DNA of 44,063 nucleotides, taken from Patescibacteria group bacterium (lineage in GTDB: Bacteria > Patescibacteriota > Minisyncoccia > UBA6257 > JACRHW01). Shown here piece by piece: positions 3,778-36,645 of this stretch. The notes below the pieces were generated by a model, which worked only from the letters and a program-made list of their open reading frames with translations, did not search any database and had not been told where the DNA came from. Numbering within the stretch: the first letter of the stretch is position 1; the number at the start of each line of letters is the position of its first letter. The position numbers and the translations under genes are program-made. Location of the stretch: assembly GCA_028865725.1 (NCBI GenBank), contig JAGWJP010000005.1, positions 1 to 44,063 on the forward strand, read 5' to 3'.

Positions 3778-4884
3778 ATGTCAAGCCGCTCCCTCTCCAT
3801 CGGAATCGTCGGCCTGCCGAATGTGGGCAAATCGACCCTTTTCAACGCTCTAACCAGGAAGAGCGTTCTGGTCGCGAATTATCCGTTTGCCACCATCGAT
3901 CCGTCGGTAGGCGTGGTGGCGTTGCCGGACGAGCGTCTCCGGAAACTGTCCGAGTTTTCTCATTCCCGAAAGACCGTGCCCGCGGCCGTCGAATTTGTCG
4001 ATATAGCCGGCCTGGTGAAGGGCGCTTCGCAGGGCCAGGGCCTGGGCAATAAATTCCTGGCCAATATCCGCGAGACGGACGCCATAGCCGAGGTAGTGCG
4101 CATTTTCGATGACGGCGGCATCATTCACGTGGACGGCCGAGTAGATCCGGTCAAGGATATCGAAGCGGTAAACCTGGAACTTATCATGGCCGATCTCGAA
4201 ACCGTGGACAAGCGTCTCGCCAGCGTCGCCAAGGACGCCAAGGCCGGCAAGAAGGAGGCCAGGATAGAGCAGGGCCTGCTGGAACGCCTGAAGCCGTCGC
4301 TGGAAGCGGGCAGGCCCGCTTCCAGCGTGACAGCCGATGAATTCGAGAGGCCGATGCTCAATCGGCTCTGTCTGCTCACCTCCAAGAGGATTCTTTATGT
4401 CCTGAATAAAAAGGCCGGGGGAGCCAATCTCGACGAGCTCAGAGACGGGCGCTGGGACAAGCTCATGGCCTTTATGAAGGAGAACGGCGCCTCATGGGTC
4501 GCGGTGGACGCCGGCTTAGAGCAAGAATTGAAGGACATGAACGACGCCGACAAGAGGGAAATGCGTTCCGGCCTCGGCGCCAAGGACGACGGCGTCGACG
4601 GCCTAATCCGGAAAAGCCATGACATGCTCGGCCTGATAACATTCTTCACGACCGGCGAAGACGAGACCCGCGGCTGGACTATTCACGACGGCTGGACGGC
4701 GCCCATGGCGGGTATGGCCATCCACACCGATTTCAAGGACAAATTCGTGCGAGCCGAAGTCATCAATTGGAAGACTCTGCTCGATGCCGGCTCATACGCC
4801 GCCGCCCGCGAAAAAGGTCTGATTCGCACCGAGGGCAAGGAATACGTGGTCAAGGACGGGGATGTAGTGGAGTTTAAGGTTTAG
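3778..4884 (+). CDS. ychF: Redox-regulated ATPase YchF (Obg family)
   Basis: [28 protein letters not shown]-terminal TGS domain ending [17 protein letters not shown]. Confidence 0.98.
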
Positions 4885-4885
4885 G
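4870..4885 (+). repeat. att core in the ychF 3' end
   Basis: GAGTTTAAGGTTTAGG is identical at 43658-43673. Confidence 0.75.
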
Positions 4886-4996
4886 GAAAGAAAAAGTCGA
4901 CCAACTTTCATTGATCGACCCTGATTTCACCTCTAGAAACCAGTAGGCGTAACCTCTTTCGAGGGATGATACCGTTAAAAGTATTGTATCAGAGTG

Positions 4997-5026
4997 GATG
5001 GTGGTCTCATAGAGTTTAAGGTCTAA
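4997..5026 (+). repeat. att-like junction copy 2
   Basis: gatggtggtctcatagagtttaaggtctaa matches 43643-43672 at 27/30 positions. Confidence 0.8.
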
Positions 5027-5058
5027 AAGAAAGTCCCGACGGATTGCTCCGCCGGGAC
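5024..5058 (-). terminator. Intrinsic terminator (GCAA loop)
   Basis: Minus strand gtcccggcgga-gcaa-tccgtcgggac-tttctttt. Confidence 0.7.
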
Positions 5059-5123
5059 AGGCCCTAACTAACATGTGGTTTAAGCGTTGTGCTTCATACC
5101 AGAATTAAGATTATCATACATCA

Positions 5124-5160
5124 TGAGAAGATGCTAGTCTCACAGAGTCTAAGATCTGAG
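5124..5160 (+). repeat. att-like junction copy 3 (degenerate)
   Basis: tgagaagatgctagtctcacagagtctaagatctgag aligns without gaps to tgagaagatggaggtctcatagagtttaaggtttagg at 43637. Confidence 0.7.
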
Positions 5161-5161
5161 C

Positions 5162-5348
5162 AACAAAAAGAAAGAGCGTAAGAAGGTGTTACGCCCTTGA
5201 AACCGCGGAACGAACGCTTTGCGGGTTTCAACACAAAGCGACTAACGCGTCAGAGGGTCTGGAAGGACTGAACCTCCGCCTAGCTTGAACTCGTGCTCAA
5301 CACGACCTCCGTCTTCTGATCCAGATCCTTCGAACCAGAGAACTATCT
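5162..5348 (-). ncRNA. Candidate ~185 nt structured non-coding RNA
   Basis: Promoter TTGACA(5383-5378)-17-TATCTT(5360-5355), internal stems, terminator gggcgtaa...ttacgctc-tttcttttt; no substantial ORF. Confidence 0.45.
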
Positions 5349-5400
5349 AGCTTGAAGATACACGGATCGGGAATATTTGTCAAGTCTGGATGGAGTAAGT

Positions 5401-5833
5401 TCAACAAGTAAGTGCAACACCCCAGACTTCTAATGGTGTCCGCCAATTGAGCCGTTTTCTCGGTCGAGAATTGATTTCGGCTTCAACTTTGCGGATCGTC
5501 TCATCAGGTATCATATCGAAGTCCGTCTTCTTGGGGAAGTAATCCCGTATGAGGCCGTTGGTGTTCTCGTTGGTGCCTCATTCCCAGGAATGATACGGGT
5601 GGGCGAAGTAACACTTGGTACCGGTTAGCTTTTCAATCTTCTGCCAATCACTGTTCTCAGAACCATTGTCGAGGGTAACTGTCTGCTTCAGTTCATTCGG
5701 TACATCCTTGAACCTGCATGCCATCGCTCCGACTGTCGCAGCGGAAGTCTTTCCCTTGAGCTTGGTCATCATGAGAAGTCCGGTCTTCCTTTCGGTGAGG
5801 GTATTCAATCCGGGCTTGTGATCTTTTGACTCT
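5401..5833 (-). pseudogene. IS30-family transposase C-terminal remnant with internal stop
   Basis: TLDNGSEN, YFAHPYHSWE*GTNENTNGLIR, NSRPRKRLNWRTP; TGA at 5580-5578 where Arg is expected; IS30-like end GGTGTTGCACTT; 5' part deleted. Confidence 0.9.
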
Positions 5834-5834
5834 G

Positions 5835-5996
5835 ATGTTTCAGATCATGGATGCGCCGGATCCAGTGCTCATGAGTGCCTACAAGTTTGGCGGTCTCTTG
5901 AGTAGCATCGTCGCGATACTCACCACTCCGTTTCTCTGGCGTTTTTACAAACGTCACAAGCGATCAATTTCGCTTGATGATTTCAGTCCCTTCTGA
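5835..5996 (+). pseudogene. Short ORF or C-terminal remnant of a membrane protein
   Basis: MFQIMDAPDPVLMSAYKFGGLLSSIVAILTTPFLWRFYKRHKR... abuts the IS30 deletion point and is followed by a terminator. Confidence 0.4.
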
Positions 5997-6020
5997 ATTC
6001 GTCCGCAGCGAAGCATTCAG

Positions 6021-6052
6021 AGCCAGCATCGGAAACGATCGCTGGCTTTTTT
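6021..6052 (+). terminator. Intrinsic terminator
   Basis: agccagc-atcggaaacgat-c-gctggct-tttttt. Confidence 0.75.
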
Positions 6053-6093
6053 ATGATATAATTCGAACACCACACCTAAACGGCACCGAGTAC

Positions 6094-6141
6094 AAGGAAT
6101 ACGTGGTCAAGGATGGGGATGTGGTGGAGTCTAAAATATAG
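6094..6141 (+). repeat. Displaced duplicate of the ychF 3' end (att scar)
   Basis: caaggaatacgtggtcaaggatggggatgtggtggagtctaaaatatag ([15 protein letters not shown]) versus 4836-4884 ([15 protein letters not shown]). Confidence 0.9.
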
Positions 6142-6286
6142 CGACCCCATCTTCTAGGGCAAAAAGTCAAAAACGACCCTAAAAACAACAAAATAATTTC
6201 AAGAAAATGCTCGGCAAAAACCGGGCATTTTTCATTGCCTGGACTCGTCTGCAAAGGTCGAAATTTATCAGCCAAAAAACGGAACT

Positions 6287-6649
6287 ATGAATTCAAAATC
6301 CAAGTTCGTGCCGGCATCAAACCGCGACACCATGCATTCCGGATTCCACGCATATCTGCATGCCTCCTACCAGGAGCTTGTGGATAAGTTGGGGATTCCT
6401 CATGACCGCACCAAAGAGGATGACTGGCGGTCCGGAGATGACAAGGTTCGAGTCGAATGGGCCTTCAAGTCAACAAACAAGAAGCGCCCAATGGTACTCA
6501 CTATCTACGACTACAAGGAATCTCGGCCGATCAATGAGGTTAACCAATGGCATGTCGGCCTGAAAGGCGACGCGCACCAGGTAGACCAGTTGTTCAGGGA
6601 AAAAGGACTCTATCCTGAAGCCCTAGAGATTCATAAAAAGTACCGTTAA
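6287..6649 (+). CDS. Phage hypothetical protein
   Basis: 120 aa; SYQELVDKLG.P, DKVRVEW, TIYDYK, WHVG pattern resembles a recurrent small phage protein family. Confidence 0.7.
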   Translation: MNSKSKFVPASNRDTMHSGFHAYLHASYQELVDKLGIPHDRTKEDDWRSGDDKVRVEWAFKSTNKKRPMVLTIYDYKESRPINEVNQWHVGLKGDAHQVDQLFREKGLYPEALEIHKKYR

Positions 6650-6657
6650 CAAATAAT

Positions 6658-6707
6658 CATTGTCCCGAAAGGGATCGGTCCATGTACAGGACCAGATGCT
6701 AGCAATG
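6658..6707 (+). ncRNA. Three-way-junction RNA motif, copy 1 (sequesters the next ATG)
   Basis: cattg-tccc GAAA ggga-tc-ggtcc atgtaca ggacc-a-gatgctag-caatg; same frame at 41716-41763. Confidence 0.65.
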
Positions 6708-7001
6708 AAAACAAAAACCAAAAACACCCGCGCCATAACCTACCGGAGATACGGCATACCAGCCTTGATTCTCGAAGGTAAATGGCTCACAGAAAAATAT
6801 CACCTCTCCATCGGAGACGTGGTCGACATCGATTATCAGCCTAAAGAGATCCGCTTCAAAAAGAATAACCTTCTTAGTCAGGAAAGACAGCAAAAGCTCA
6901 AGGAGAAGAAGGAAATGAAGCGACAACGAATATATGGACACACCGAAGCAAGCTCGAATGAGAACACTGGCGAGAGAAGCCAAGAAATTGGTGGAGAGTA
7001 A
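6705..7001 (+). CDS. SymE/AbrB-fold protein with basic C-terminal tail
   Basis: IPALILEGKWL...LSIGDVVDI resembles the SymE-family core; ATG 6705 is preferred over the track start at 6660, which lies in the RNA motif. Confidence 0.65.
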   Translation: MKTKTKNTRAITYRRYGIPALILEGKWLTEKYHLSIGDVVDIDYQPKEIRFKKNNLLSQERQQKLKEKKEMKRQRIYGHTEASSNENTGERSQEIGGE

Positions 7002-7233
7002 AGCTCCAATACTCGTAGATGAACAGGTCCTGCCGCACATGCTCGATGAGGTCGCGGAATTCACCGGCGACATCATGGGCAAGCTAACCCACTTAGATGC
7101 GGAGGATGACAAAGCCATCACTATGGCCCACGGAATCATCTATGACGGCCTTCTCAACGAAGTAATCAACCAGGTCAGAAAAACCATGCTGGACGCAGCA
7201 GGTAAAAGAATAAAGAAATTATCAGCAAAATAA
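6934..7233 (+). CDS. Hypothetical protein
   Basis: 99 aa ORF co-oriented with its neighbours, overlapping the previous gene. Confidence 0.65.
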   Translation: MDTPKQARMRTLAREAKKLVESKAPILVDEQVLPHMLDEVAEFTGDIMGKLTHLDAEDDKAITMAHGIIYDGLLNEVINQVRKTMLDAAGKRIKKLSAK

Positions 7234-7957: not shown

Positions 7958-8353
7958 ATGAAGAAAACAATTCAATTCACTATTAAGGGAAACCAGGAAG
8001 ACATAGAAGGCAATCCACTGCCGTACATCCGCGTAGTGGGCCGGGCACTGTGGCTGCCAAACGCAAAGAAATACCATGCCTGGAAAGAATACATCCGCAG
8101 TATCTTTTTTCGTTACTACCCGGAATTCTCATCAGCTGACTCGCATCCGTTAACGACTAAGATATCCAATAAAGCGAGCATGGCGATCAAGATCTACTGG
8201 GCGCACGGGGTCCATGCCGATCCTGACAATGTGTTCAAGGGAATAGCCGATGCTCTCTTTAAAAACGACAAGTTCCTCGACGGCGCGTTCGAGTCCCACT
8301 ATGCGCCGGATGGCAGAGGAAGGGTCGAGATCGAAATTACTCAAAATATTTAA
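7958..8353 (+). CDS. rusA: RusA-family Holliday junction resolvase
   Basis: DPDNVFKGIADALFKND matches the RusA D.DN..K...D motif; C-terminal RVEIEI. Confidence 0.8.
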   Translation: MKKTIQFTIKGNQEDIEGNPLPYIRVVGRALWLPNAKKYHAWKEYIRSIFFRYYPEFSSADSHPLTTKISNKASMAIKIYWAHGVHADPDNVFKGIADALFKNDKFLDGAFESHYAPDGRGRVEIEITQNI

Positions 8354-8365
8354 AACATATGCCGA

Positions 8366-8746
8366 ATGTACAACGCCAATAACCCTCGCCACAAGCTAAA
8401 TCCGCAGCAGCTAAAAGAGGCCCAGCATTGCTTCGAAGACGAGGGCTGGAGAATCAATTGGATATCTGCATATTTCGGCATCCACAAGAAGTCAGTCATA
8501 TTCCATGTCCGGTATAACGGCTGGGTGAGAAGAATCAGGGTCCTAAAGCACATGCCGCATGAGATTGCCGATATCTACAGGCAAAGAAAAAAGCAAAAGT
8601 ATGAGGTGAGGTTCGGCGGGTCCTATGAATTTATCAAACTCTCGGCCGAAAAGAACACCGGAGACGGCTGCGGGCATACAAGATGGATCAAGCGCTGCAG
8701 CCTCTGCGGAGAAATACTCGGGTCAGATGCAACGCACAATCATTAA
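8366..8746 (+). CDS. HTH protein with C-terminal Cys/His cluster; candidate late activator
   Basis: GWRINWISAYFGIHKKSVIFHV HTH-like segment; CGH...KRCSLCG. Confidence 0.6.
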   Translation: MYNANNPRHKLNPQQLKEAQHCFEDEGWRINWISAYFGIHKKSVIFHVRYNGWVRRIRVLKHMPHEIADIYRQRKKQKYEVRFGGSYEFIKLSAEKNTGDGCGHTRWIKRCSLCGEILGSDATHNH

Positions 8747-8764
8747 TCAATAAATTTAAATATT

Positions 8765-9175
8765 ATGAAAAAAGAAAATACTAAATCAGAAATCAAACGG
8801 GTCCCGAATCCTCTCGACCTGTCGACGCGGTTCCTCATGGCTAGGCCGGATCTGGTAACCGCATGGATTGTCGGAGCCCACAGTCTCCTGCCGATATTCA
8901 AATCGAAACACAGGGAGGCGATCATAATGTACCTGCAGACGGTCCAGGAAGAATTCTTCGCTGCGCTGCGTCATCACTGGGAAAAGAAATATCCTGATCA
9001 GAAAATGACATACACCTTCGGTACGATCTGCCGAAACCGCAAAGGTGAGGAGCGCCTAGTTATCGGTGTTCAGCCGATGGAGTCAAAGAAGCCTGCTTAT
9101 GACTACATAGACGACAACGGCAAAGCAGGCGCATGCAACGAGTCGAGCATGGTGAGCTGGATGAATAAGATATAA
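8765..9175 (+). CDS. Hypothetical phage protein
   Basis: 136 aa ORF in operon context. Confidence 0.65.
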   Translation: MKKENTKSEIKRVPNPLDLSTRFLMARPDLVTAWIVGAHSLLPIFKSKHREAIIMYLQTVQEEFFAALRHHWEKKYPDQKMTYTFGTICRNRKGEERLVIGVQPMESKKPAYDYIDDNGKAGACNESSMVSWMNKI

Positions 9176-9179
9176 ATCT

Positions 9180-10508
9180 ATGCAGATCACTGACGTAAAA
9201 AAGTACGAGAAGAACGCAAAGGAGCACCCCGGCTTCCAGCTTGAGAAGATCGCAAGCTCGATAAAAGCCTTCGGATGCAAGCAGCCGATCATTCTCGGTA
9301 AAGACGGGACTATCATCGTGGGCCACGGCCGCTTTATTGCCATGACCGAGCTCCTCGGCTATACACTCATGGATGAGAAAGCATTCACAAAGAAAGGTGA
9401 GCCGGTTGTCCCGTATGTGATGGTGGACGATCTAAGCGAAGAAGAAATAAAAGCGTATCGAATTGCTGATAACCAACTCAATGCACTCACCGGCCAGGAC
9501 ATGATTCTCATTGTCGACGAGCTCAAAGACCTGGACGCTGCGGGATTTGATATCACACTCACCGGCTTTGACCGCGATATTATTCTCGAAAATGACGAAC
9601 AGGACGATGTGCTACCTGAGACTCCGAAGGAGCCGAAAAGTAAACTCGGAGACGTGTTCCAGCTTGGTCCTCACATCGTTGTCTGCGGTGATTCGACCGA
9701 CAAAGACGCATGGCTCAAAGCATTCCAGACAAGAAAAGCCGATATGGTCTTCACCGATCCTCCGTACAACGTGAACTATGCCGGCCGGGGAAAGAAAACA
9801 AGCGAGGGGATCATGAATGATGACATGGATTCGGAAGCGTTCGATTCATTTCTCGAGAAAGCATTCGGCTGCATTGCCGACTTCGCCAAGTCCGGAGCAG
9901 GATGGTACGTATTCCATTCCACATCAACGCAGGCGCAGTTTGAGAAGGCTCTCAAGAAGTACGGAATGGCAATCCGCAATCAGCTCATCTGGAACAAACC
10001 GACCGCGTCAATGGGCTGGGGCGACTACCGCTGGAAGCATGAGCCCTTTTTCTACGCTTCAAAGGATGGAACAGAGACTGTCTTCTACGGCGACCGGACT
10101 CATTCGACCATTATTGATTTCCACGAGAGTGAACTGAAACTTCTGAACTGGGCGAAGCAGCAGAAGAAGCTCGAGACCGAAGGAAAATTCACCATCTGGA
10201 CAATGAAGCGCGACCGCGTGAATGAATACCAGCACCCGACTCAAAAGCCTGTCGAGCTCATCACCTATGCGCTCGCGAATTCATCGAAAGCAGAAGACCT
10301 TGTAGCGGATCCGTTCCTTGGAAGCGGCAGTACGCTTATTGCGTGCGAGAAGACTGGCCGGGCCTGTGCCGGTATTGAACTTGATCCGAAGTTTGTAGAT
10401 GTGATCGTTCAGCGATGGGTGGATTATACCGGCACAGAGCAGGTGGTCCGGAATGGCCAGCCGGAAATCTGGCCAAAAACCATCTATGAGCATGAATCCG
10501 AAGAATAA
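9180..10508 (+). CDS. ParB-domain plus N6/N4 DNA methyltransferase
   Basis: IIVGHGR and IADN (ParB N-terminal domain); DPPY, HPTQKP, DPFLGSGST. Confidence 0.92.
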   Translation: MQITDVKKYEKNAKEHPGFQLEKIASSIKAFGCKQPIILGKDGTIIVGHGRFIAMTELLGYTLMDEKAFTKKGEPVVPYVMVDDLSEEEIKAYRIADNQLNALTGQDMILIVDELKDLDAAGFDITLTGFDRDIILENDEQDDVLPETPKEPKSKLGDVFQLGPHIVVCGDSTDKDAWLKAFQTRKADMVFTDPPYNVNYAGRGKKTSEGIMNDDMDSEAFDSFLEKAFGCIADFAKSGAGWYVFHSTSTQAQFEKALKKYGMAIRNQLIWNKPTASMGWGDYRWKHEPFFYASKDGTETVFYGDRTHSTIIDFHESELKLLNWAKQQKKLETEGKFTIWTMKRDRVNEYQHPTQKPVELITYALANSSKAEDLVADPFLGSGSTLIACEKTGRACAGIELDPKFVDVIVQRWVDYTGTEQVVRNGQPEIWPKTIYEHESEE

Positions 10509-11082
10509 TGAAAACAATCAGCCAAAAGTGCTGCTTTTGGAGGCTCCTAAGGACGTTCCGAAGGCTCCGCAGAGTTCGAGCACCGTAGAGGCAAATAAGG
10601 GCATTTCCGAGGCTCCGTCAGACCCTTCGGATGCCCGAATTAGCGGGCAATTAGCGGGCAGAGACCCCGTTACTGGGCAGTTCCTTCCGGGCAACTCAGG
10701 CAGGCCCTACGGAGTCCGAATTTTCAGCACTTTGTTCAGGGATGCCATCAAGGAGATCGGCGGTACATCTAAGGACGGAAAAAAGGTGACATACGACAAA
10801 ATTATTGCAAAAAAGATGATAACAATGGCTGCCGACGGCAACCTCAAGGCAGCCGGGATGGTCATCGAGCGGGTAGACGGAAAAGTACCGCAGTCGTTTG
10901 AAATTAATAAGGTCGAAAGAGTGGGTGTGGTCATCATGAGTCAGAAGGAAATTGAAGACCACGAAAATATTTTTAAGAGACATGATAAATCAAGAACCGA
11001 CAACAGCAATGCCACCGGTCACAGCGCACGGACTGAAGACTCTCCGGGAGTCGAGGAAGGAAGTGCGTACGAGCCACGCTAA
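10486..11082 (+). CDS. Terminase small subunit-like protein
   Basis: GQFLPGNSGRP motif, AADGNLKA..VIERVDGK; directly upstream of TerL; start at 10486 or 10492 is likelier than 10453. Confidence 0.7.
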   Translation: MSMNPKNNENNQPKVLLLEAPKDVPKAPQSSSTVEANKGISEAPSDPSDARISGQLAGRDPVTGQFLPGNSGRPYGVRIFSTLFRDAIKEIGGTSKDGKKVTYDKIIAKKMITMAADGNLKAAGMVIERVDGKVPQSFEINKVERVGVVIMSQKEIEDHENIFKRHDKSRTDNSNATGHSARTEDSPGVEEGSAYEPR

Positions 11083-12664
11083 GGAGCACTTCGGATACTT
11101 TCTCGCATACTATCTGCCGAAATATGTACGATCGGAGTTTGCAGATTTTCACTACGATATGATGGCTGACGTGCACGATCTCCTGGATCTCAAAATAAGA
11201 GAGCTTGCATGGTTTATGTTCGGAGAGAGCGCAAAGACTAGCTTTGCAAAAGGTCTGATCCTTTACATGATCGCATACGACATCGAGCCATACATCAATG
11301 CAGACGCCTTCGACAGCACAAACTCGGAACGCATTCTATTCGACGTGGTCTGGGAACTGCAGACCAACCAACGATTCATTGAAGACTTCGGAGAGAAATA
11401 CAACACTGCACGAACCAAGGACGAAGTGACGCAGAAAAGAATCAAAGATTTTATAACAAACCCTATCCGCGATGATGACGGGAATATTATCAAGGAAGGT
11501 ATCCGAGTAGAAGCACACAGTACGCAGGAAAGCGTACGAGGAAGAACACATGGATCAATGCGTCCGGGATTTGTCCTTGTCGATGATTTTGAAACCAAGA
11601 AGACCTTGCGAAGCGAAGCAGCTACAAATCAGATACGAGTACACATTCAGGAATTTAAGCGAGGTCTCGACTCTGCAAGAAGACGGGTTATTTATCTCGG
11701 AAACATCCTCTCCGAATACGGAAACGTGCAGAGCATTATCGAAAGAGCGAAGGTTGATCCGGAGCTTAGGGTCCGCATCGTGCCGATCTGTCAAGGGGCG
11801 CTCATGTCCGGACTGCACACTCCGTCCTGGCCGGAACGATGGGTAATGACAGACGAAGAAGCAAAAATAACGGGCAAGGTAAGTATCGAAGCAAAGAGAC
11901 GATCAATGTGGACTCCCGAAGAAGGAGATATGGACTTCCAGGCCGAAATGCTCTGCCAGCCGATCGATGAATCAAAGGCAATATTTAAACGGGAATGGTT
12001 TCAGACAATCGAATGGGAACCACTCATGCAGAAGCGTCTTGCAGCCTATGTCACCATCGACACGCCAAGCAGAAAAGAAGACGGAGAAGTCACGAAGGAC
12101 AGCGACTATGTGGGTATTTGCATCAACTGGATAGACAGGGAAGGCAAATGGCATCTGAAAGCATGGAGGGAGAAACTCGGTCCTACCGGAATCATCGAGA
12201 AGATGTTTGGCATTTACAACTTTCTGATCCAGGCAGGAACACCTCCTGTAAAGTTTGGATGGGAAGACACAGCATTCACAAGAGGTCTCGAACCAATGCT
12301 CCGGCATGAGCAGAGGATGAGACAGATGTTCCTGCCCCTTACCTGGCTAAAACATGAGGGAAGGTCAAAACAAGATCGAATACGAACAGGACTTCTGTAC
12401 AGATACGAAACCCGGAGCATTTATCACCTTCAAGGCGAATGCAAAGACCTGGAAAACGAGCTGGTCCGCTTTCCAGATGCAGATCACGACGATACCGGCG
12501 ATGCGACAGCTTACCAGAGCGATATTGCACGTCCGGCCGGAACTGAAAAGCCAAGAGATCCGAGACCAGAAAGGGTAATCGACACTCCATACGGCAAAGT
12601 AAAACCTGCATACGAAGACGAACTGGTTGATGACGGTCCCCAATTCCCGGATATCGGCATCTAA
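10982..12664 (+). CDS. Terminase large subunit
   Basis: Walker A-like FGESAKTS, VRGR, Walker B VLVDD, coupling LGN, nuclease TID...SDY...HDDTGDA; start uncertain (10952 or 10982). Confidence 0.92.
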   Translation: MINQEPTTAMPPVTAHGLKTLRESRKEVRTSHAKEHFGYFLAYYLPKYVRSEFADFHYDMMADVHDLLDLKIRELAWFMFGESAKTSFAKGLILYMIAYDIEPYINADAFDSTNSERILFDVVWELQTNQRFIEDFGEKYNTARTKDEVTQKRIKDFITNPIRDDDGNIIKEGIRVEAHSTQESVRGRTHGSMRPGFVLVDDFETKKTLRSEAATNQIRVHIQEFKRGLDSARRRVIYLGNILSEYGNVQSIIERAKVDPELRVRIVPICQGALMSGLHTPSWPERWVMTDEEAKITGKVSIEAKRRSMWTPEEGDMDFQAEMLCQPIDESKAIFKREWFQTIEWEPLMQKRLAAYVTIDTPSRKEDGEVTKDSDYVGICINWIDREGKWHLKAWREKLGPTGIIEKMFGIYNFLIQAGTPPVKFGWEDTAFTRGLEPMLRHEQRMRQMFLPLTWLKHEGRSKQDRIRTGLLYRYETRSIYHLQGECKDLENELVRFPDADHDDTGDATAYQSDIARPAGTEKPRDPRPERVIDTPYGKVKPAYEDELVDDGPQFPDIGI

Positions 12665-12669
12665 ACTGA

Positions 12670-12714
12670 AGTAATGCACCCAATTTTGCATTTATCCAAG
12701 CTCATACTGAAGTC
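12670..12714 (+). promoter_or_regulatory. Phage late promoter 1 (portal, leaderless)
   Basis: AGTAATGCACCCAATTTTGCATTT-N9-CATACT-N6-ATG. Confidence 0.75.
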
Positions 12715-14736
12715 ATGGCATTAGCCCACTACAAAGTTCGTGATGCGCTCGCAAAGCAGGCGCTCAAAGAGATCGACTATTCATACCGATACAAGAAAGC
12801 GAGAATGTCCTCGTGGAATAAAAACGAGGACATGATGAATCCGGATAGGATGAGTCCGGCAGTTGTGTCGCCGTATGGAAGCACCACATTCCAGCAAGCA
12901 GGAGATACCCGGGCCCAGGTACCGCTGTACAAGATGCATGGATTCGTGCACACGATTCTCTCCAAGATTGACAGTCCTCTCACATTTAAATACGTCAAAG
13001 GCGAATCAGCAGACCTGAAGAAGTCGAAGCTTATGAACGCCATCAAGGAAAAAGATGCGAAGACCGGCAGATGGAATTTCAAAGACCTCATGGGCAAGCG
13101 TGACGCAGCAATTTATGGGCGTGCAATCTATCTTTACCTCACCAGAAATGACAAGGGTTTGTACCGTAGTCTACTCAACCTTATCGACCCTAAAGACTTT
13201 CTCATTGATCCGGACGTAGGCGGACTCTGCACTGAAGAAGAAGATGGAAGCGGCGTGGAGAAGGCGGCATATCTTGGCTGGTGGAATACCAAGCTCTCCC
13301 GTGCCCAGCTGACAAAGGGAATCAAAGACGGAATTTATTACAAAAAAGTAGTTGAAGACCTGTTGGACGGAGGCACGAACACTACGACCAAAACAAAGCA
13401 GGATATTGATAAGGACAACCGAAAGATCAATGGAGCTCCCCGGGAGCGTTTCAAGAATGAAAATCAATTTATTTTTTATACATGGATCACCACAGACGAA
13501 AATGACGACCGATACTATCTGGTCCTTACTCCATCCGGAGACTGTATCCGCTGCGAGCCTTGGAAGGATATAAGAAAAAGCGAGCGATATCCGATCTGGA
13601 CGTGGGCAGCCTTCCCGGATCCCCGTGAGTTCTGGACACCGTCATACTGTGACTTTGCCAGGGGCATCTTCATGGCGCAGGAAAAGAGCATCAACCAGTC
13701 TCTGGATAACTCAGAGCAGATCAACAGACCTCAGACAGCAGTGAATGTGGACTATGTCCGCAATCTTGCACAGGTGCGATACCGAAAAGATGGCTACATT
13801 GAAATCGAAGGAAACATCGATGTGAATAAAGTCCTTCAGACCAGACAGACTCCTCCGATCGAAGGTCCATTCAAGGTATACGACAAACTCGAATCAATCG
13901 TAGAGACAGAAAGCGGAGTAACAGCAGACGTAAAAGGCACAAGCGATGAAGACACACTCGGAATCTATGAAGGCAATCTTATGCAGGCAGGAGACAGGTT
14001 CGGACTTTTGAATAAAAGCTATGCTGAAGGCTACTACCGATTCGCTGTCCTGCACAAAGAAGGCGTCATGCAGGATTTGAAAAAGAAAATGGCAGTCCAG
14101 ATTCTCGGTCCGATGGGACTTGAGATCGAAATGGTAAGCGCAAGAGATCTGAAGCCGTTCCAGAACGACTACGATATTCTCGTCGAGTCATCAATTGCTG
14201 AAGCACAGAGCAACCTCGCAGACAGCAAGAACAAACTCACTTTCCTCGGAGCATACAAAGGCGATCAGAACATCAATCAGAAAGTGCTATTTGAAACCCA
14301 GGCAACGATTGCCGGAGTAGATGACGACACAGTAAAAAGGCTACTTGATACAAGCGATTACAATGCAATCGAAATTGTTGCCCAGGCTGATGAGGCTTTC
14401 CAGATGCTTATCGGCGGACATAAACCACCCCTCTACAAAGATGCAAACACAGCATTCCTTCAAAGGCTTCACGACCTATCAGACAAATACGATCACGAAC
14501 TTACTTCCGAACAGCATGCAGCAGTATTCTCCTACATCGACGAAATAACGCCGGTTGTGGAGAAGAATGCAGCACGTTCGGTGGTAGCCGAGTCGGCAAA
14601 GCTGGGTCTGATTAGTGGCGGGGGTAAAAAGGTCGATGGAACCGGCCTCGAAAATACAGATCTGGCGGCAACCGGCGAAGTTCCGCTCGGGAATCCCGGA
14701 GCGGAAGTAGCTGAGACCGGTGCATTATCAAAATAA
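12715..14736 (+). CDS. Portal protein (P22-like size)
   Basis: 673 aa directly after TerL; AAIYGRAI, DFLIDP, ESGVTADVKG; helical. Confidence 0.85.
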   Translation: MALAHYKVRDALAKQALKEIDYSYRYKKARMSSWNKNEDMMNPDRMSPAVVSPYGSTTFQQAGDTRAQVPLYKMHGFVHTILSKIDSPLTFKYVKGESADLKKSKLMNAIKEKDAKTGRWNFKDLMGKRDAAIYGRAIYLYLTRNDKGLYRSLLNLIDPKDFLIDPDVGGLCTEEEDGSGVEKAAYLGWWNTKLSRAQLTKGIKDGIYYKKVVEDLLDGGTNTTTKTKQDIDKDNRKINGAPRERFKNENQFIFYTWITTDENDDRYYLVLTPSGDCIRCEPWKDIRKSERYPIWTWAAFPDPREFWTPSYCDFARGIFMAQEKSINQSLDNSEQINRPQTAVNVDYVRNLAQVRYRKDGYIEIEGNIDVNKVLQTRQTPPIEGPFKVYDKLESIVETESGVTADVKGTSDEDTLGIYEGNLMQAGDRFGLLNKSYAEGYYRFAVLHKEGVMQDLKKKMAVQILGPMGLEIEMVSARDLKPFQNDYDILVESSIAEAQSNLADSKNKLTFLGAYKGDQNINQKVLFETQATIAGVDDDTVKRLLDTSDYNAIEIVAQADEAFQMLIGGHKPPLYKDANTAFLQRLHDLSDKYDHELTSEQHAAVFSYIDEITPVVEKNAARSVVAESAKLGLISGGGKKVDGTGLENTDLAATGEVPLGNPGAEVAETGALSK

Positions 14737-14749
14737 TTAATATAAATTT

Positions 14750-14917
14750 ATGTCAGAAGAAAACAACGAAGTTAAAAGTGAGCAGTCAGAGGAGCAGAAG
14801 CCCGAATCTCAGGAAGGGGTAACCGATACTCAAGCCGAAGAGAATTCCGCAGGAAAAGCAGAAGGTCAAACGGATGCCGGCACTGCAGCTCCCGAACAGG
14901 AAAACAGCAATGCTTAA
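14750..14917 (+). CDS. 55 aa acidic low-complexity protein (not in the ORF track)
   Basis: MSEENNEVKSEQSEEQKPESQEGVTDTQAEENSAGKAEGQTDAGTAAPEQENSNA; its stop overlaps the next ATG. Confidence 0.6.
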   Translation: MSEENNEVKSEQSEEQKPESQEGVTDTQAEENSAGKAEGQTDAGTAAPEQENSNA

Positions 14918-15284
14918 ATTCGTTTACAAAATAAAGAAGCGTGCGAAGGACAAGGGCGATCACCGGATTATTAAACATGGTCAGGTGTCGGAGTTCTCGC
15001 TCCGCGAGCTCAACCGGAACATCGAGCAGCTCAAGAAGCAGGCCAAGGAAATGGAAGTCAATGCCAGACTGCAAAATTCTCTGGCGGAAAACATCCGCAG
15101 GCAGAATCCTGACCTTGCCACCTACATCAAGAAACTTTCTCCCAAGAAACGATATGCACTGACACTGCTTGCAATCCAGGAGAACAAAGCCAAGCAGTTC
15201 AAGGATCAGGAGAAGATGTCAAAAAGCATCCTTCGCACTCTTATCCGTGAGGATAAGGAAGTCCGCAGTCAATTAAAGCTATGA
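14910..15284 (+). CDS. Basic coiled-coil hypothetical protein
   Basis: Start at MLKFVYK is preferred; K/R-rich. Confidence 0.7.
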   Translation: MLKFVYKIKKRAKDKGDHRIIKHGQVSEFSLRELNRNIEQLKKQAKEMEVNARLQNSLAENIRRQNPDLATYIKKLSPKKRYALTLLAIQENKAKQFKDQEKMSKSILRTLIREDKEVRSQLKL

Positions 15285-15691
15285 ACGAAAATCAAACACA
15301 AACAACTGAGCCGGCAAAGGAAACCGAACTCACCGGTCCACATAATGCAGCCAAAGAAGCTGAACAGGAACAGGTTCAGGTTGATGAAGCCGAGGTAAAG
15401 GAACTAAACAAAGCAATCGATGTGGCTGGAGATCTTGTCTCCTGGTCAAGAACTCCTGCCGGCAAAGATACAATCGAAAGACTGCAGAATGAATCAAGGA
15501 AAGCAATGAACGAGCTCTTCACCATGCTCCACCAGAATCCTGAAATGGGCAGGCTTATATCAGCCATTGCTCGGTTCGAAGCGTCGGTCCAGATGCTCCG
15601 CAGATTCATCGGAGCTGACGAAGACCTTGATGTTCTCCTCAACGAACTAGCAAGAAAACGTCCGAGTGCGGCTGCAGCAGCAACGGAATAA
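15281..15691 (+). CDS. Hypothetical phage head-module protein
   Basis: ATGA overlap with the previous gene; helical. Confidence 0.7.
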   Translation: MNENQTQTTEPAKETELTGPHNAAKEAEQEQVQVDEAEVKELNKAIDVAGDLVSWSRTPAGKDTIERLQNESRKAMNELFTMLHQNPEMGRLISAIARFEASVQMLRRFIGADEDLDVLLNELARKRPSAAAAATE

Positions 15692-15697
15692 GGAAAA

Positions 15698-15730
15698 GAA
15701 AATCATCGGGAAACCGGTGATTTTTCTTTC
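15698..15730 (+). terminator. Intrinsic terminator
   Basis: aaaatcatcgg-gaaa-ccggtgatttt followed by Ts. Confidence 0.75.
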
Positions 15731-15735
15731 CAAAA

Positions 15736-15780
15736 AGTAATGCACCCAATTTTGCATTTTTTATCCTTCAAACTTACAGG
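15736..15780 (+). promoter_or_regulatory. Phage late promoter 2 (scaffold/capsid)
   Basis: Same 24-bp motif-N9-CAAACT. Confidence 0.75.
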
Positions 15781-15883
15781 CATAGAGGGGCCAACCTCTT
15801 ATTTATAAAAAGGTCTAATCGCGCTAGTGCTCTGCGTACAACAACCGAGCATCGATGGGGCGAAACCATCGCAATAAAACGTA

Positions 15884-16744
15884 ATGCCAAAACCAATAAG
15901 CAAGGAAGCAGCGCCTGTCGACGACAAGTCGAAAGCTGCAGGGGAGCAGAAACCCGATAACAAGGGCAATGCCAAAGATACCAACCCTTCAAATGGTCAA
16001 TCGATTGCACAAGTTGCAGGGGCGGACAGCTCTAAATCTGGCGACTCCAAGGGGAAACCCGGGGACGGGGATGAGAAGGACAGTCTCATCGTCGATCTCA
16101 AAAAAGAGAACCGCGAGATGAAGAAGATGATACGTGACGAGGTCATCCCGACCATTCGAGAACTGCAACAGCAGATCAAGAAAGGCGGAACCAGCGCCGA
16201 CGACGCTCTCGATGAGCTAGACGCACTCGCCAAAGAGTGGGAACTCGAGCCGAAATTTGTCCAGAAGCTCGCAAGCATTCTCCTCACCAAGTCCAAGAAG
16301 CAATTCGAAGACGAGTACCTTTCAGACATCAAAGATATCAAGAAGAAGACCGAGGATCAGTCCAAGGAAATCACGAACGCTCAGATCACTTCAGCTATTT
16401 CGAAAGAGTTTGACCGCGTAGTTGCGGATAACCCTGATCTTGCCAAGGTTGCCAAAAAAGAGGCTGTGAGAAAGTACATCATGTCAAGCGAGGAGAATCT
16501 CTCCCGCACCATGGAGGACATTCTCGAGGAGCTCTACGGCGACTCTGCAAAGCCGGAACCAGGCATGGAAGGCTACAGCTCTCAGGGCGGAAACCATCCG
16601 AAGGAGCCTGATTACAAGACTCCGAGCGAAGAAGATCACAAGCGTATCGCCGAATCCAGACAGAAAGGCGGTCAGGAGTTCGAGAAGTACCAGGAAGGTC
16701 TTATCGACCGCCTGACCCACCGCTCGCGTCATCGCTCAAGATAG
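15884..16744 (+). CDS. Capsid scaffolding protein
   Basis: Charged coiled-coil with disordered N-terminus, immediately before the capsid gene. Confidence 0.7.
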   Translation: MPKPISKEAAPVDDKSKAAGEQKPDNKGNAKDTNPSNGQSIAQVAGADSSKSGDSKGKPGDGDEKDSLIVDLKKENREMKKMIRDEVIPTIRELQQQIKKGGTSADDALDELDALAKEWELEPKFVQKLASILLTKSKKQFEDEYLSDIKDIKKKTEDQSKEITNAQITSAISKEFDRVVADNPDLAKVAKKEAVRKYIMSSEENLSRTMEDILEELYGDSAKPEPGMEGYSSQGGNHPKEPDYKTPSEEDHKRIAESRQKGGQEFEKYQEGLIDRLTHRSRHRSR

Positions 16745-16789
16745 CTATGTCTGAGAGGGTAAATTTATTCACTTAATTTTATTCCTCTC

Positions 16790-17992
16790 ATGTTAGCGAC
16801 ATTCAAGGAACAGTTCGACAACGCCTATCAGGCTGTGTTCGACAAAGTGCTCGTGGCAATGGAGATTGCCAACACGCGTCTCGAGACAAAACTCGAGTAT
16901 GGAGCATCGGTAAAGCGTGTGAAGTATTCTCTAGCTCCGATCAGGGTACGCAATATCACGATCGGCGTGAACCGAACCATTGACCAGCTCAATGACTCCG
17001 GCGAAACCCTGCTTGTAAACAAGAACAAGGGTTCTGACTTCCGCGTCTCGAAGAAAGAAATGATTCAGGCTGGCCCGCTGAATCCGGCCGAGACGATCGG
17101 TGCCGAGGTAGCCAAGAAGCTATCCCGATACATCGATGCCGACGTGTTTGCTGAAGTCAAAAAGGCAAAGCAGACATTCGATACCGGCGACCTCACCACA
17201 ATGATGTCGAGCGGTGTAGCTATAGCTCTTTCCACCACCAACGTCCCTCAGCTTTTGGCACAAGGACGCGCCAAGCTGCGCAGGGCAAACCAAGACCTCA
17301 CCAGTCTGGCGCTGGTCCTCGACAGTTACGGCGGATCGGTGATCGAGCAGTACGTCATGTCTAAAAACATTGACCTTGCTGCTGCAGCCTTCAAGAACGG
17401 CTATGCCGGTCCTGTGGGCGGTGCGGAGCTTTATCTCTCCGAGAACCTGCTTGCCGAGGCGGTCATCACTATGGCGTCAAACCCTTCAAACGGCGAGACG
17501 TTCTCGGTGAACGGATTCACGTACAAGTTCGTGGATACGATCGGTACCGATCCGGGCAACGTGCTTATTGAAACGGGAGTCGATGACACCCGAGACAACC
17601 TGATTGATGCGATTCATCAGAAGACGGCTACCGCCGGAACGAAGTACATCGCATGGACTGACACGGATCCGAACTACGATCAGTCCAACTGGGTCGACCT
17701 GCAGATTGCTGCAGTCGATGATGATGCGGCAAACACTATCACCATTACCGGAACCGGTTCGGGCAGGCTCACCTTCGGAGGTACGGCAACCTATACGGTT
17801 ACCAAGAACCTCGTTCACGCCTACTACGGCAAGAAGGGCGCAATCGACGTGGTCGTCCAAGACCTCGCCGAGATGGAAATGGTCGACGATCCGTACCAGA
17901 GGGCAAAGATCATCCGTGCGGATGCAATCTATGGAATCTTTACCTTCGCCGACGGAAAACCTCAGTTCCTCGACGTTCTTCTCCAGTCATAA
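16790..17992 (+). CDS. Major capsid protein (HK97 fold, P22-coat-like) with inserted domain
   Basis: Position after scaffold; YGASVK, LSRYIDADV, C-terminal RADAIYG..F. Confidence 0.8.
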   Translation: MLATFKEQFDNAYQAVFDKVLVAMEIANTRLETKLEYGASVKRVKYSLAPIRVRNITIGVNRTIDQLNDSGETLLVNKNKGSDFRVSKKEMIQAGPLNPAETIGAEVAKKLSRYIDADVFAEVKKAKQTFDTGDLTTMMSSGVAIALSTTNVPQLLAQGRAKLRRANQDLTSLALVLDSYGGSVIEQYVMSKNIDLAAAAFKNGYAGPVGGAELYLSENLLAEAVITMASNPSNGETFSVNGFTYKFVDTIGTDPGNVLIETGVDDTRDNLIDAIHQKTATAGTKYIAWTDTDPNYDQSNWVDLQIAAVDDDAANTITITGTGSGRLTFGGTATYTVTKNLVHAYYGKKGAIDVVVQDLAEMEMVDDPYQRAKIIRADAIYGIFTFADGKPQFLDVLLQS

Positions 17993-18075
17993 CGGCTGCA
18001 CTGTCCCGAGTCCGCTCGGGTCCAGTGCCGGACACACGATCAATCATGTTTCAGGCATTGGGAAATATATAAACC

Positions 18076-18705
18076 ATGGCAACACCACTAACAGGACAAC
18101 AGATCATAGAACGCTTCGAGTTTTATACCGACGATACAACAGACCTCTCGAGCGACGAGGAGCTTATTCTTGCGAATGACAAGATCAGACTGATCTTCAT
18201 GGAGCAGCCGTGGGAGTTTCTGCGAAGAAATAAGACAGGCGTTGTAGGAAGCGACGGCAAGATTGCTCTTCCTGCCGACCTTGACGAACTCCTAGAGAAC
18301 TTCAGTGATGATTCGAGCGTGGGAGAACCCACGATGAAAGTAATCTATATAGGCGGGCAGAAGTCTCCGTATCTCGTGGTTCCGATGGGACAGAGAAATG
18401 CCAACAACTTCAGCAATGTCTGTTGGATAGATCCTTCTGACGGAAAAATAAACTTTGCACAAAATCCAGGTGTAGGTGCTGCTTACGAATATGACTACAA
18501 GACCAGTCCTGACGATATTGCAGTCGGCACTTCGCCTAAACTTCCTGCCGAATATCATCCGATGATTGTCTTTGCCATGCTTATCGACGAAGAAATCATT
18601 AAGAAATCTGAAAAGGCACGCAGCAATATGCAGGACAATGCGGTTCAGTACCAGCGATACCTCAAGAACCTCAAGCTCAGAGATGCGAGATTTAAACTTT
18701 CTTAA
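18076..18705 (+). CDS. Head-to-tail adaptor protein
   Basis: PWEFL, ALPAD, PKLPAEYH.MIV..., typical of podovirus adaptors. Confidence 0.7.
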   Translation: MATPLTGQQIIERFEFYTDDTTDLSSDEELILANDKIRLIFMEQPWEFLRRNKTGVVGSDGKIALPADLDELLENFSDDSSVGEPTMKVIYIGGQKSPYLVVPMGQRNANNFSNVCWIDPSDGKINFAQNPGVGAAYEYDYKTSPDDIAVGTSPKLPAEYHPMIVFAMLIDEEIIKKSEKARSNMQDNAVQYQRYLKNLKLRDARFKLS

Positions 18706-18708
18706 TTT

Positions 18709-20610
18709 ATGGCCGATCATGAGATTAAAAAATTTGCATCAGGAGTACATAACCGCGAAGATAACGAGGACACGCCAAAAGACAGCGCCAAAGACGCACT
18801 CAACTGGGTGACTATTGACGGAAGGATAGAGCTAGCGCGAGGAAAAGTGACGGTAGGAACCGAAGGCCCAGCAGGATCGTGCCCGGCAATCCATGTGGGA
18901 TACAAAGCAAACGGAACCGGAGTGCTCTGGAGAAAGGTAGCGACGGCAATTCAGTACTTCAACGGTCTGACGTGGATCGATGTCGTCACCGGACTCAATC
19001 CCGGCGACGTTTACGTGTTCACGAACTACAGCTCACTCACGGGAGCGTGGACATTTGCCGGCGGTCCGGGCGGTCTCTTCAAATTTGCCAATGCCAATCC
19101 GACTAACTACATCCAGCTTTATAGCATTGCAGACTTTTTCTGCGGATTTCCTCTGATCGACAAGGCAAGAATGTATCTCTGGGGAATTGTGAAAGACACA
19201 ACGGCACTTTATCGCAGTTACATCGATGTTCAGCGTGATGGCGTCAGCTTTACGCAGGTCTCAAACGAAAATCTCGCATCAGGAAACGGGTCGCAAACTT
19301 CATTCTCCGGGACATTATCCTTCAAGAGCGGCCAGCAGAAAAGAAACTGCGGACTTGTAACAATTAAATGCACTGACGGCGGAGGAGAAATATTCACTGA
19401 CGACAAGAACGGAACTTTGAAGGGGACTGCAGGCGGAGCAGGAACCATTAATTATATTACTGGAGCATGGAGCGTGAACTTTGTAACCGTCCCGACTAAC
19501 AGCGCAAACAATATCAAAGCAGACTATGTCTGGGAAAACAGCACAACGAAAGGTGTCGCGGATTTTACCTACAGCGCATCACGACTTGCTGGAGAGGGAG
19601 ATGTGATCCGACAGGATGAAGGAGGTGACGCCATTCAGCAGCTTGTGATCGGTATTGATGGAAACTACTACTCACTCAAAAAGCAGAGTGCATACCAGCA
19701 TAAATACACGGATGACGACAAAACATTTAATAACCAAGTGGTCCGAAGAAATATCGGAGTTCTCACAAGAAAAAGCTCTGTCACTACCGGCCGAGGTGTG
19801 GTCTTTATAAATACTGCCAACCCTGACAGACCACAGCTCACCGTTCTCGAAAAGAACCCTCTGGGTGATGACATTCTTGCAACGGAACTTATTCCGCATT
19901 TTGCATGGGAGAAGTTCGATTATTCGGATGCGGTCATGGAAACCTACGGACAATTTATTGTTCTGTCGTGCCGGGCTCAATCAAGCATCGTAAATGACCG
20001 CACGCTTATCATCGACATTGTGAAAAACACTGTCGACATTTCGAACTACGGAATGAAAGCTCTCATCAAGGATTCCGGAGTACTCTACGGCGGAAGTCCT
20101 CACACTCAGACAGTTTACAAGATTCTCAACGGATTCGACGATGACGGATATGTAATCCAAAACAACTGGGACAGCAAGTACGAAACCTACGGAGTCCGAA
20201 GACTGAAAAAATATCGCAGACTCAGATATCGAGGAGAAATAGATCCCGCTCAATACGTGGAAGTGTATGCCGACTTCGACGGAGCCGGATATGCCCTCAT
20301 TGGCACAATTCGCGGTGATGCGACATATGTCAACCGCACAAGTCCATCAAGCGTCGGTACGACCATGATCGGAGACTCTGCCGTGGGCGGAGACGGTGCA
20401 GCTCAGGTCTATCCGTACGAGCTTCAGATCAAGGCGATGAAGATCCCCAAGTTCCGAAGACGCAGTATCCGTTTTATAGCCAAGGGAATCGGCTATGTCA
20501 GCGTAATGGAATCGGTCGACTGGGACATTTTGACCTACGAGGACAAACTGCCTAAGGTTTACCGCCAAAAAGAGCATATAAGCCTGGACGGAAAGAGCGT
20601 GAACCAGTAA
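18709..20610 (+). CDS. Tail nozzle/stabilisation protein (P22 gp10-like)
   Basis: 633 aa beta-rich, FASGV start, RRLKKYRRL C-terminal region; position after adaptor. Confidence 0.65.
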   Translation: MADHEIKKFASGVHNREDNEDTPKDSAKDALNWVTIDGRIELARGKVTVGTEGPAGSCPAIHVGYKANGTGVLWRKVATAIQYFNGLTWIDVVTGLNPGDVYVFTNYSSLTGAWTFAGGPGGLFKFANANPTNYIQLYSIADFFCGFPLIDKARMYLWGIVKDTTALYRSYIDVQRDGVSFTQVSNENLASGNGSQTSFSGTLSFKSGQQKRNCGLVTIKCTDGGGEIFTDDKNGTLKGTAGGAGTINYITGAWSVNFVTVPTNSANNIKADYVWENSTTKGVADFTYSASRLAGEGDVIRQDEGGDAIQQLVIGIDGNYYSLKKQSAYQHKYTDDDKTFNNQVVRRNIGVLTRKSSVTTGRGVVFINTANPDRPQLTVLEKNPLGDDILATELIPHFAWEKFDYSDAVMETYGQFIVLSCRAQSSIVNDRTLIIDIVKNTVDISNYGMKALIKDSGVLYGGSPHTQTVYKILNGFDDDGYVIQNNWDSKYETYGVRRLKKYRRLRYRGEIDPAQYVEVYADFDGAGYALIGTIRGDATYVNRTSPSSVGTTMIGDSAVGGDGAAQVYPYELQIKAMKIPKFRRRSIRFIAKGIGYVSVMESVDWDILTYEDKLPKVYRQKEHISLDGKSVNQ

Positions 20611-20650
20611 TGCACCCAATTTTGCATTTTCTTCAGATCATACTTACACC
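20606..20650 (+). promoter_or_regulatory. Phage late promoter 3 (leaderless)
   Basis: 24-bp motif-N9-CATACT-N6-ATG(20651). Confidence 0.75.
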
Positions 20651-21424: not shown

Positions 21425-21440
21425 AAATAATTTAAATAAA

Positions 21441-23519: not shown

Positions 23520-23525
23520 AAATAA

Positions 23526-25124: not shown

Positions 25125-25126
25125 TT

Positions 25127-29760: not shown

Positions 29761-29761
29761 A

Positions 29762-30529: not shown

Positions 30530-30530
30530 A

Positions 30531-36461: not shown

Positions 36462-36537
36462 TGGCTTCTCCTTTTCTGTGTTTGTTTACGTTTGTGATGA
36501 CAAATAACTATGCACCTACACAGGTGCTCTGACGCCT

Positions 36538-36565: not shown

Positions 36566-36645
36566 GAAAAATTGCTAAATATTTTTATAAAAAAATGAGC
36601 GGTCCTTTTTCAGAACCGCCCATGGGTAAGCGTGCTGTCTGTGCT

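Follow-up and report, generated by a model that had tools for sequence, protein, structure and literature searches.

In the stretch of patescibacterial DNA analyzed here, which we call the window and which is an entire contig of 44,063 bases from a genome of 1.36 Mb (1,356,327 bases over 104 contigs), the essential gene ychF is followed by a stack of units bounded by copies of its own 3' end. The order is ychF, two non-coding mini-units (U1 and U2), a longer unit with a dead IS30 transposase gene (E1), a prophage with cargo, and a last attachment (att) site. The att sites lie next to closely related integrases in metagenomes, their phage form is palindromic, further copies recur behind ychF in other species, and two relatives differ by the insertion of one unit exactly at the att core. 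Tandem site-specific accretion of integrase-less cassettes at the ychF end is the best reading of these observations and, in our judgment, probably the right one. Bacteria of the candidate phyla radiation (CPR) have very small genomes, and their gene gain is little understood. Here, one contig joins a docking gene, a stack of mini-units without a recombinase, and a complete phage with a matching integrase. Together, the window and its relatives indicate a compact cassette system, accretion- or integron-like, that would be run by phages.

Five att copies at and behind the 3' end of ychF

The att core, GAGTYTAAG, occurs at 4870, 5012, 5145, and 43658 of the window, always on the plus strand. These four matches compare with 0.47 expected, and none of 100 dinucleotide-preserving shuffles reached that number, so the recurrence reported in an earlier note on this DNA is real and the similarity of the copies is significant against shuffled controls. 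The three copies outside ychF form a 41-nt family (4992-5032, 5125-5165, and 43638-43678) whose members are 71-83% alike. Searched genome-wide with up to two mismatches, the 24-nt extended motif GATGNNNGTCTCAYAGAGTYTAAG gave three matches, every one of them inside the window, and a reversed control gave none.

The four copies listed in the earlier note thus stand, but a fifth had been overlooked. Its core, GAGTCTAAA at 6127-6135, lies within a 62-nt, 85% identical duplicate of the ychF 3' end (6083-6144). As a result, the copy at 43658 pairs with the copy at 6127 and not with the mini-units, and the prophage spans these two copies. All five copies are in direct orientation, and in each the ychF reading frame continues beyond the core for two codons and then stops.

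Minus-strand terminator-like hairpins follow four of the copies (4922-4893, 5058-5033, 5198-5172, and 43709-43684; fold z-scores of -2.5 to -3.3), with an A-rich run between core and hairpin each time. The earlier observation that every listed copy is followed by such a run and by a different hairpin therefore applies to all four. The sequences to the right of the att copies are otherwise unrelated: among ten pairwise local alignments, each with 300 shuffles, the smallest p was about 0.03. The idea that the left ends of the units derive from the phage right-arm region was rejected on these right-side alignments, none of which gave a p below 0.03.

The two mini-units share only the att region of about 40 nt; their interiors and hairpins are unrelated. 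U1 has a weak minus-strand promoter-like site (extended -10-like) at 5010-4983 and ends in a P-type arm (4992-5011), and it could yield an RNA of about 90 nt, a candidate small RNA. In U2, no promoter was found at the scan threshold, and a search of the mini-units against Rfam returned no family at E<=1. Two sub-threshold Rfam matches to small RNAs lie at 6180-6255, and none lies in 41450-44063. Unit E1 appears decayed. Its sole gene is a minus-strand IS30-family transposase remnant at about 5380-5960, frameshifted and 5'-truncated, of which the fragment 5581-5808 matches the NCBIfam IS30 model NF033563 (E 6.5e-21). No trace of phage arms or phage genes is present in U1 or U2.

The att array is not an artefact of a single assembly, because independently assembled contigs from the runs of two studies reproduce it: the stretches 3798-5814 and 3798-7218 are identical to the window, with 0 differences. 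Contigs from two runs (X4 and X7) end at the same point in U1 (4956-4958), and two others (X1 and X5) continue through it. This shared break may reflect a branching assembly graph and hence a variant in the population.

Table 1. The ychF att array, the prophage, and flanking features, in positions of the window (ORF, open reading frame; aa, amino acids)
Feature	Coordinates	Strand	Details
ychF, putative docking gene, 368 aa	3778-4884	+	Pfam YchF-GTPase_C 110.8 bits; also MMR_HSR1
att copy 1	core 4870-4878	+	within last ychF codons (D G D V V E F K V stop); core match
Mini-unit U1	4879-5011		142 bp core to core; no ORF of at least 40 aa
att copy 2	4992-5026	+	P-type left arm, core 5012-5020, two codons and stop in ychF register; reads D G G L I E F K V stop
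Mini-unit U2	5021-5144		133 bp core to core; no ORF of at least 40 aa
att copy 3	5125-5159	+	diverged P-type arm, core GAGTCTAAG at 5145-5153; reads E D A S L T E S K I stop
Unit E1	5154-6126		982 bp core to core; terminator, IS30 remnant, 45-nt ychF-like arm at end
att copy 4, left prophage junction	6083-6156	+	core GAGTCTAAA at 6127-6135, stop 6139-6141, phage right arm 6143-6156
Prophage plus cargo	6137-43657	+	37.5 kb
Xer-like tyrosine integrase, 305 aa	41944-42861	+	
att copy 5, right prophage junction	43624-43709	+	integrase-proximal P arm, core 43658-43666, stop 43670-43672
Second IS30-like transposase gene, 3' end	43895-44063	-	running off contig

A Xer-like phage integrase and its palindromic site

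The predicted protein starting at 41944 matches Pfam PF00589 over residues 107-289 (91.9 bits against a cutoff of 27.1) and also a PHROG integrase. Its motifs TGARNGE, HSMRH, LGH, and VYT stand in the expected order as read by eye, without a reference alignment. On this basis it has the catalytic domain with the R...HxxR...H/W...Y signature by which we define a tyrosine recombinase of the phage integrase superfamily. The protein aligns end to end with the XerA, XerD, and XerC models, has no extra N-terminal arm-binding domain, and matches the XerA structure 5hxy (E 5e-15). Its top NCBIfam models nonetheless all fall below their curated equivalog cutoffs (XerA, 123.4 vs 220; XerD, 112.6 vs 329.6; XerC, 110.9 vs 335), and models of integron integrases failed altogether (TIGR02249, 56.7 bits against a cutoff of 265; PRK15417, 31.3 against 435). 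By these comparisons the integrase is Xer-like in length and domain layout and is not a Xer orthologue.

In the window, the att copy at 43658 lies 797 bp past the integrase stop. We searched metagenomes with the arm pattern of the non-ychF copies, excluding true ychF ends, and oriented the 36 loci obtained with the match on the plus strand. In 11 of these 36 pattern-selected loci, an integrase 88-100% identical to that of the window lies upstream of the same left arm and core. The distance from the integrase stop is 368-380 bp at ten loci and 798 bp, a window-like spacing, at one. ychF is present at 19 of the 36, with the arm about 200-1300 bp past its end in 17 and upstream of it in two; six loci hold neither gene. 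The proposal of the earlier note that the att copies are attachment sites of the 41944 integrase is thus supported. In L104 and L127 (att at 1012 and 5016), two of the metagenome loci that come from one site, a phage-type arm and core lie about 650 bp upstream of the ychF start; this arm is therefore not confined to the 3' side of ychF.

The integrase also has a counterpart in a related phage. A 35.5-kb IMG/VR phage contig (G061; CheckV 95%) is collinear with 7970-25219 of the window at roughly 45-90% amino-acid identity, and collinearity resumes at its integrase, which is 74% identical to the 41944 protein. Because this phage is collinear with that of the window and carries such a similar enzyme, the 41944 integrase belongs to the window prophage. 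A search for ychF in the phage contig found none.

Judged from these sequences, the phage site is an imperfect palindrome of about 48 nt, in which two arms of about 20 nt surround an 8-nt exchange region, AGTTTAAG. Where phage sequence lies on both sides, the flanks are inverted repeats, with a best 14-nt match of 13 in L121, 12 in L101, 12 in G061, and 11 in L129. Among 2000 random pairs, none reached 12, 13 reached 11, and 95 reached 10. Furthermore, the same sequence of about 110 nt stands at both ends of G061 and begins exactly at AGTTTAAG, with different sequences to its left, which places strand exchange within those 8 nt.

The window can be read in the same terms. Behind the core in L101, L129, and L121 stands the same phage-side sequence as behind the window copy at 6127, and the right side of att copy 4 is homologous to this phage-side sequence in these three loci and in G061. 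The phage right arm of att copy 4 (6143-6156) and the arm at 43638-43651 are inverted partners, and the left arm of copy 5 matches the right arm of copy 4 at 10 of 14 positions (TAGAAGATGGAG against TAGAAGATGGGG, on the other strand). As they stand, copies 1, 2, 3, and 5 give an inverted match of only 7-8 of 14 (7 for copies 2 and 3), which is the random level. The earlier note had read the site as imperfect arms, gtctca and taagrt, around a 7-bp spacer; according to this analysis of the flanks, that is not where the symmetry of the site lies.

Units in relatives and the origin of the stack

The closest relatives of the window ychF are in metagenome-assembled genomes of the Paceibacteria/Parcubacteria type, with at most 73-75% amino-acid identity. 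Among 80 species genomes that we fetched via ychF, 37 qualified in that ychF ends in the core with an in-register stop and is followed by at least 300 nt. In this unselected sample, nine of the 37 loci have extra plus-strand att copies within 1 kb of the ychF stop. Ten such copies were seen where the remainder of those loci predicts 0.10 (Poisson 4e-17), and one copy was found on the minus strand. The counts support the ychF 3' end as a recurrent docking site in the lineage. In 60 relatives from other genera, an 18-mer with up to two mismatches occurred once in each of four genomes, and a reversed control also in four, which is the chance level. Viral contigs gave two hits for the exact 18-mer of arm and core, both inside unrelated coding sequence and dismissed as chance, and none for the degenerate arm pattern.

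Consecutive copies no more than 1.5 kb apart delimit 39 intervals over all loci, or 34 of 67-982 bp once exact duplicates are removed. Twenty of these 34 non-redundant units hold an ORF of at least 60 aa and 14 do not. In the relatives, the units measure 67-932 bp, and many have one small gene and many their own promoter. Where the ORF of a gene-bearing unit in a relative is on the minus strand, the hairpin is the terminator of that gene. We scanned 12 of the cassette ORFs; two have Pfam matches above cutoff (SET and DUF6881) and ten have no match. The shortest units in relatives, of 67-87 bp (L033, 6072-6158; L103, 252-339; L125; and L111, 5016-5083), pair an inverted copy of the ychF end with a direct one across a GC-rich loop; the whole makes up a single long hairpin whose stem contains the att core.

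Three comparisons between relatives argue for discrete, exchangeable units. Behind ychF, L108 has one att copy and then a cassette whose ORF measures 84 aa; in L107, a gene-less unit of 196 bp is inserted exactly at the core, ahead of a cassette homologous to that of L108. This pair supports the view that gene-less units behave like discrete insertions at the core. In addition, units are more similar between genomes than the ychF genes beside them: 91.9% vs 74.4% in L106 and L109, 87.3% over 490 nt vs 72.2% in L120 and L128, 87.6% vs 73-74% in L016 and L103, and 82.2% vs 65.3% in L027 and L107. Finally, L121 has ychF, a 259-bp unit, and then a related prophage, the same order as in the window, and in L100, the integrase end of a prophage is followed by a 454-bp unit similar to the ychF-proximal unit of L098 in its ends and its 107-aa ORF. 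With a prophage after a unit in one genome and before a unit in another, phages must use more than one copy in the stack.

We propose that a temperate phage family of Paceibacteria (Patescibacteria/CPR) with a short Xer-like integrase uses the last codons of ychF as its attachment site in the chromosome. The left arm of the phage site would imitate the ychF codons K/E-D-G-x-x-I-E. Each integration would keep ychF intact, because the incoming DNA brings the last two codons and the stop, and would leave a second copy of arm and core downstream. Repetition of this process would produce the stack seen in the window: ychF, non-coding units of 142 and 133 bp, the 982-bp unit wrecked by IS30, and a complete prophage. 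Each unit opens with a stop codon, behind which come an A-rich run and a hairpin predicted to end leftward transcription; these hairpins at the left ends of the units would halt such transcription before ychF. The mini-units are without a recombinase and, if mobile, would be moved in trans by the phage integrase or in cis with a neighbor. Two parts of this account are inferred: the 41944 integrase would have created the junctions at 5012 and 5145, and U1 and U2 would have come in at their present small size rather than being trimmed in place.

Several points weigh against this proposal. Most arrays are without a resident recombinase, as no homologous integrase lies within 6 kb of ychF in any of the 80 species loci. 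The phage site reconstructed for the window (10 of 14) is a weaker palindrome than the sites of the relatives, and the internal joints, putative substrates of the integrase, have a left arm and core without a right arm. As for the spread of the mini-units themselves, U1 and U2 have no homologue beyond the att ends among the 39 units compared. Contigs of four runs from two studies contain no joint that skips a unit and no difference at all, although they represent one strain, and rare variants are invisible in contigs. Furthermore, the metagenome loci were picked by the arm pattern, which biases their composition; the survey of 37 ychF loci is the only unselected one.

Alternatively, the mini-units may be scars formed in place, left by full prophages or islands that integrated serially at ychF and were each deleted down to about 135 bp between att copies, without ever having been small mobile units. 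Such a history would agree with the visible decay of E1, whose IS30 gene is frameshifted and truncated and stands alone, with the continuous range of unit sizes in relatives from 67 to 932 bp, and with the published accretion model, which, as outlined in PMC5704250, presumes the decay of larger elements. We nevertheless consider it unlikely for the stack as a whole. No short unit starts with a phage-type right arm, and because the right sides of att copies 1-3 match at the random level (7-8 of 14), the short units are not trimmed copies of this phage family. The units of relatives are tidy, with a promoter, one ORF, a terminator, and exact att borders, and the conservation of several between genomes far exceeds that of ychF, which is not expected from random decay. 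Thus, decay in place is plausible for E1 and fits U1 and U2 poorly, since these show no trace of a phage right arm or of phage genes.

An origin without any integrase seems very improbable to us. In that case the ychF end would have been duplicated locally, together with its terminator, through slippage, gene conversion, or homologous exchange involving foreign ychF DNA. Such an origin would account for the ychF reading register and stop codon kept by every copy and for the length of the copy at 6083-6144, which reaches well past any recombinase arm. U1 and U2, however, cannot be tandem duplicates when their common part is just the att region of some 40 nt. In addition, the non-ychF arm departs from ychF at the same positions in many genomes, is the arm that adjoins the integrase gene, and pairs as an inverted repeat with the other arm of the phage. 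Chance matches of a short motif, which a core of just 9 nt and the exact 18-mers in two unrelated viral coding sequences might suggest, are refuted by the shuffles, by the confinement of the 24-nt motif to the window within 1.36 Mb, and by the same architecture in relatives.

The closest known framework, to judge from PMC5704250, is tandem accretion with cis-mobilizable elements (CIMEs) at the 3' end of a target gene, as described there for ICESt1 and ICESt3 at fda of Streptococcus thermophilus. In both settings, units without an integrase lie between att copies that repeat a conserved gene end, the gene end is regenerated at each step, and the stack stands beside an autonomous element with a cognate tyrosine integrase, here the prophage at 6137-43657. 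The stack in the window has the features of CIMEs in that direct att copies repeat the ychF 3' end, the units have no integration or transfer genes of their own, and the neighbor is autonomous and bears an integrase. It differs from the accretion outlined in that source in that the partner is a phage and not a conjugative element, and in its minimal, Xer-like recombinase, whose site is palindromic. The units are also far smaller (67-982 bp, with gene-less ones of 133 and 142 bp in the window), and those of relatives are often neat one-gene modules rather than wrecks.

The earlier note had called the stack integron-like and built by repeated site-specific integration. The second part gains from the recurrent docking site (nine of 37 loci) and from the insertion that separates L107 from L108, whereas the likeness to integrons holds only by analogy. 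As in integrons, very small and mostly one-gene or non-coding units stand in a row in one orientation, each ending in a recombination site, on a single fixed chromosomal platform whose content varies between relatives. Unlike integrons, the system has no integron-type integrase (see the TIGR02249 score above), and its integrase is encoded 37 kb from ychF at the far prophage end, with none within 6 kb of ychF in the 80 species loci. Its internal sites lack an attC-like palindrome (att copies 2 and 3, 7 of 14, random level), cassettes of relatives have their own promoters, and it is a housekeeping gene whose 3' end serves as the platform.

Integrative elements that exploit Xer recombination (integrative mobile elements exploiting Xer, IMEX) include CTX and TLC. 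The modules bounded by pdif sites on Acinetobacter plasmids, as far as the accounts consulted describe them, resemble the ychF stack in their Xer-type recombinase, short core-only sites, small modules, and arrays at one site. Here, by contrast, the recombinase is encoded by a phage and is not the XerC/XerD of the host, all sites are direct, and the target is the 3' end of a protein-coding gene and not dif. ychF also adjoins the attachment site of a Streptococcus pneumoniae prophage, which, according to the relevant part of PMC6375853, is a 14-bp site in the ychF promoter between dnaN and ychF. The site described here lies instead in the last ychF codons and carries a cassette stack; none is described in that part of the pneumococcal study (PMC6375853).

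Neither a ychF 3'-end attachment site nor patescibacterial cassette arrays turned up in our full-text literature searches, and a preprint on patescibacterial phages gives, in its pertinent sections, only predicted attachment sites, of other prophages. A wider possibility, which we put forward tentatively, is that Paceibacteria (CPR) possess a lineage-wide, phage-driven platform for gene capture. Minimal Xer-like integrases of phages would bring cassettes of 70-900 bp into the ychF end, remove them again, and rearrange them, each cassette having one small gene, a small RNA, or just a terminator, so that phage infection would drive the exchange of single genes. The units of 133-142 bp would then be functional minimal cassettes, as insulators or small-RNA units, and not debris. 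The recombination site, being short, defined, and symmetric (about 50 nt, for an enzyme of 305 aa), might also be useful as a tool.

Prophage content, cargo, and insertion sequences

The phage module (6287-28355) encodes a replication O-like protein, RusA, a ParB-methylase, a large terminase, an SU10-type portal and adaptor, a LysM protein, and an amidase. At three gene junctions of its structural part (12670-12721, 15736-15787, and 20606-20657) stands the repeat AGTAATGCACCCAATTTTGCATTT, whose copies may be phage promoters or terminators. The region 5' of the integrase (41718-41765 and 41900-41940; L013, 3790-3840) is conserved with the phage contig G061. It contains a CCCGAAAGGG hairpin block and a terminator-like hairpin just ahead of the start codon. 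No Rfam family matches this region, which is a candidate regulatory RNA or binding region.

Directly behind the phage amidase lies a block of low GC content (32-45%; 28660-32499) with five genes, for a Fic/DOC protein, a weakly LCM-methyltransferase-like protein, RibD_C, a peptidase of family S51, and a protein of the metallo-beta-lactamase fold. This block looks like separate cargo. A purine-synthesis (pur) cluster follows at 32640-40424, inside the att-bounded element and between the phage late genes and the phage integrase. It comprises a single-chain purL (1273 aa, minus strand), purN, purD, purM, and a TrpR-like gene, and its GC content is 53-58% vs 47-49% for the phage. With purL as the query, just one of 40 relatives gave a match (56% identity). 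A perfect 64-nt direct repeat precedes purD and purM (37409-37472 and 38833-38896) and reads as a duplicated promoter and ribosome-binding region.

The second IS30-like gene, at the contig end, has the same orientation as the remnant at 5380-5960, and their C-terminal fragments are 47% identical (E 3e-10); a search of the genome for further assembled copies of this insertion sequence (IS) returned only itself. The 8-mer TGTCAAGT, which reads TTGACA on the minus strand, stands at 5380-5387 and 43895-43902, 13-21 nt past the stop of both IS30-like genes and exactly 24 nt before a coding motif common to them, AAGTGCAAC. It also occurs 4-6 nt ahead of the left att arm in many integrase-less units elsewhere (L103, L114, L115, L118, L121, L036, and L100). 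An IS end, an outward promoter, and an IS30 target are the candidates for its role.

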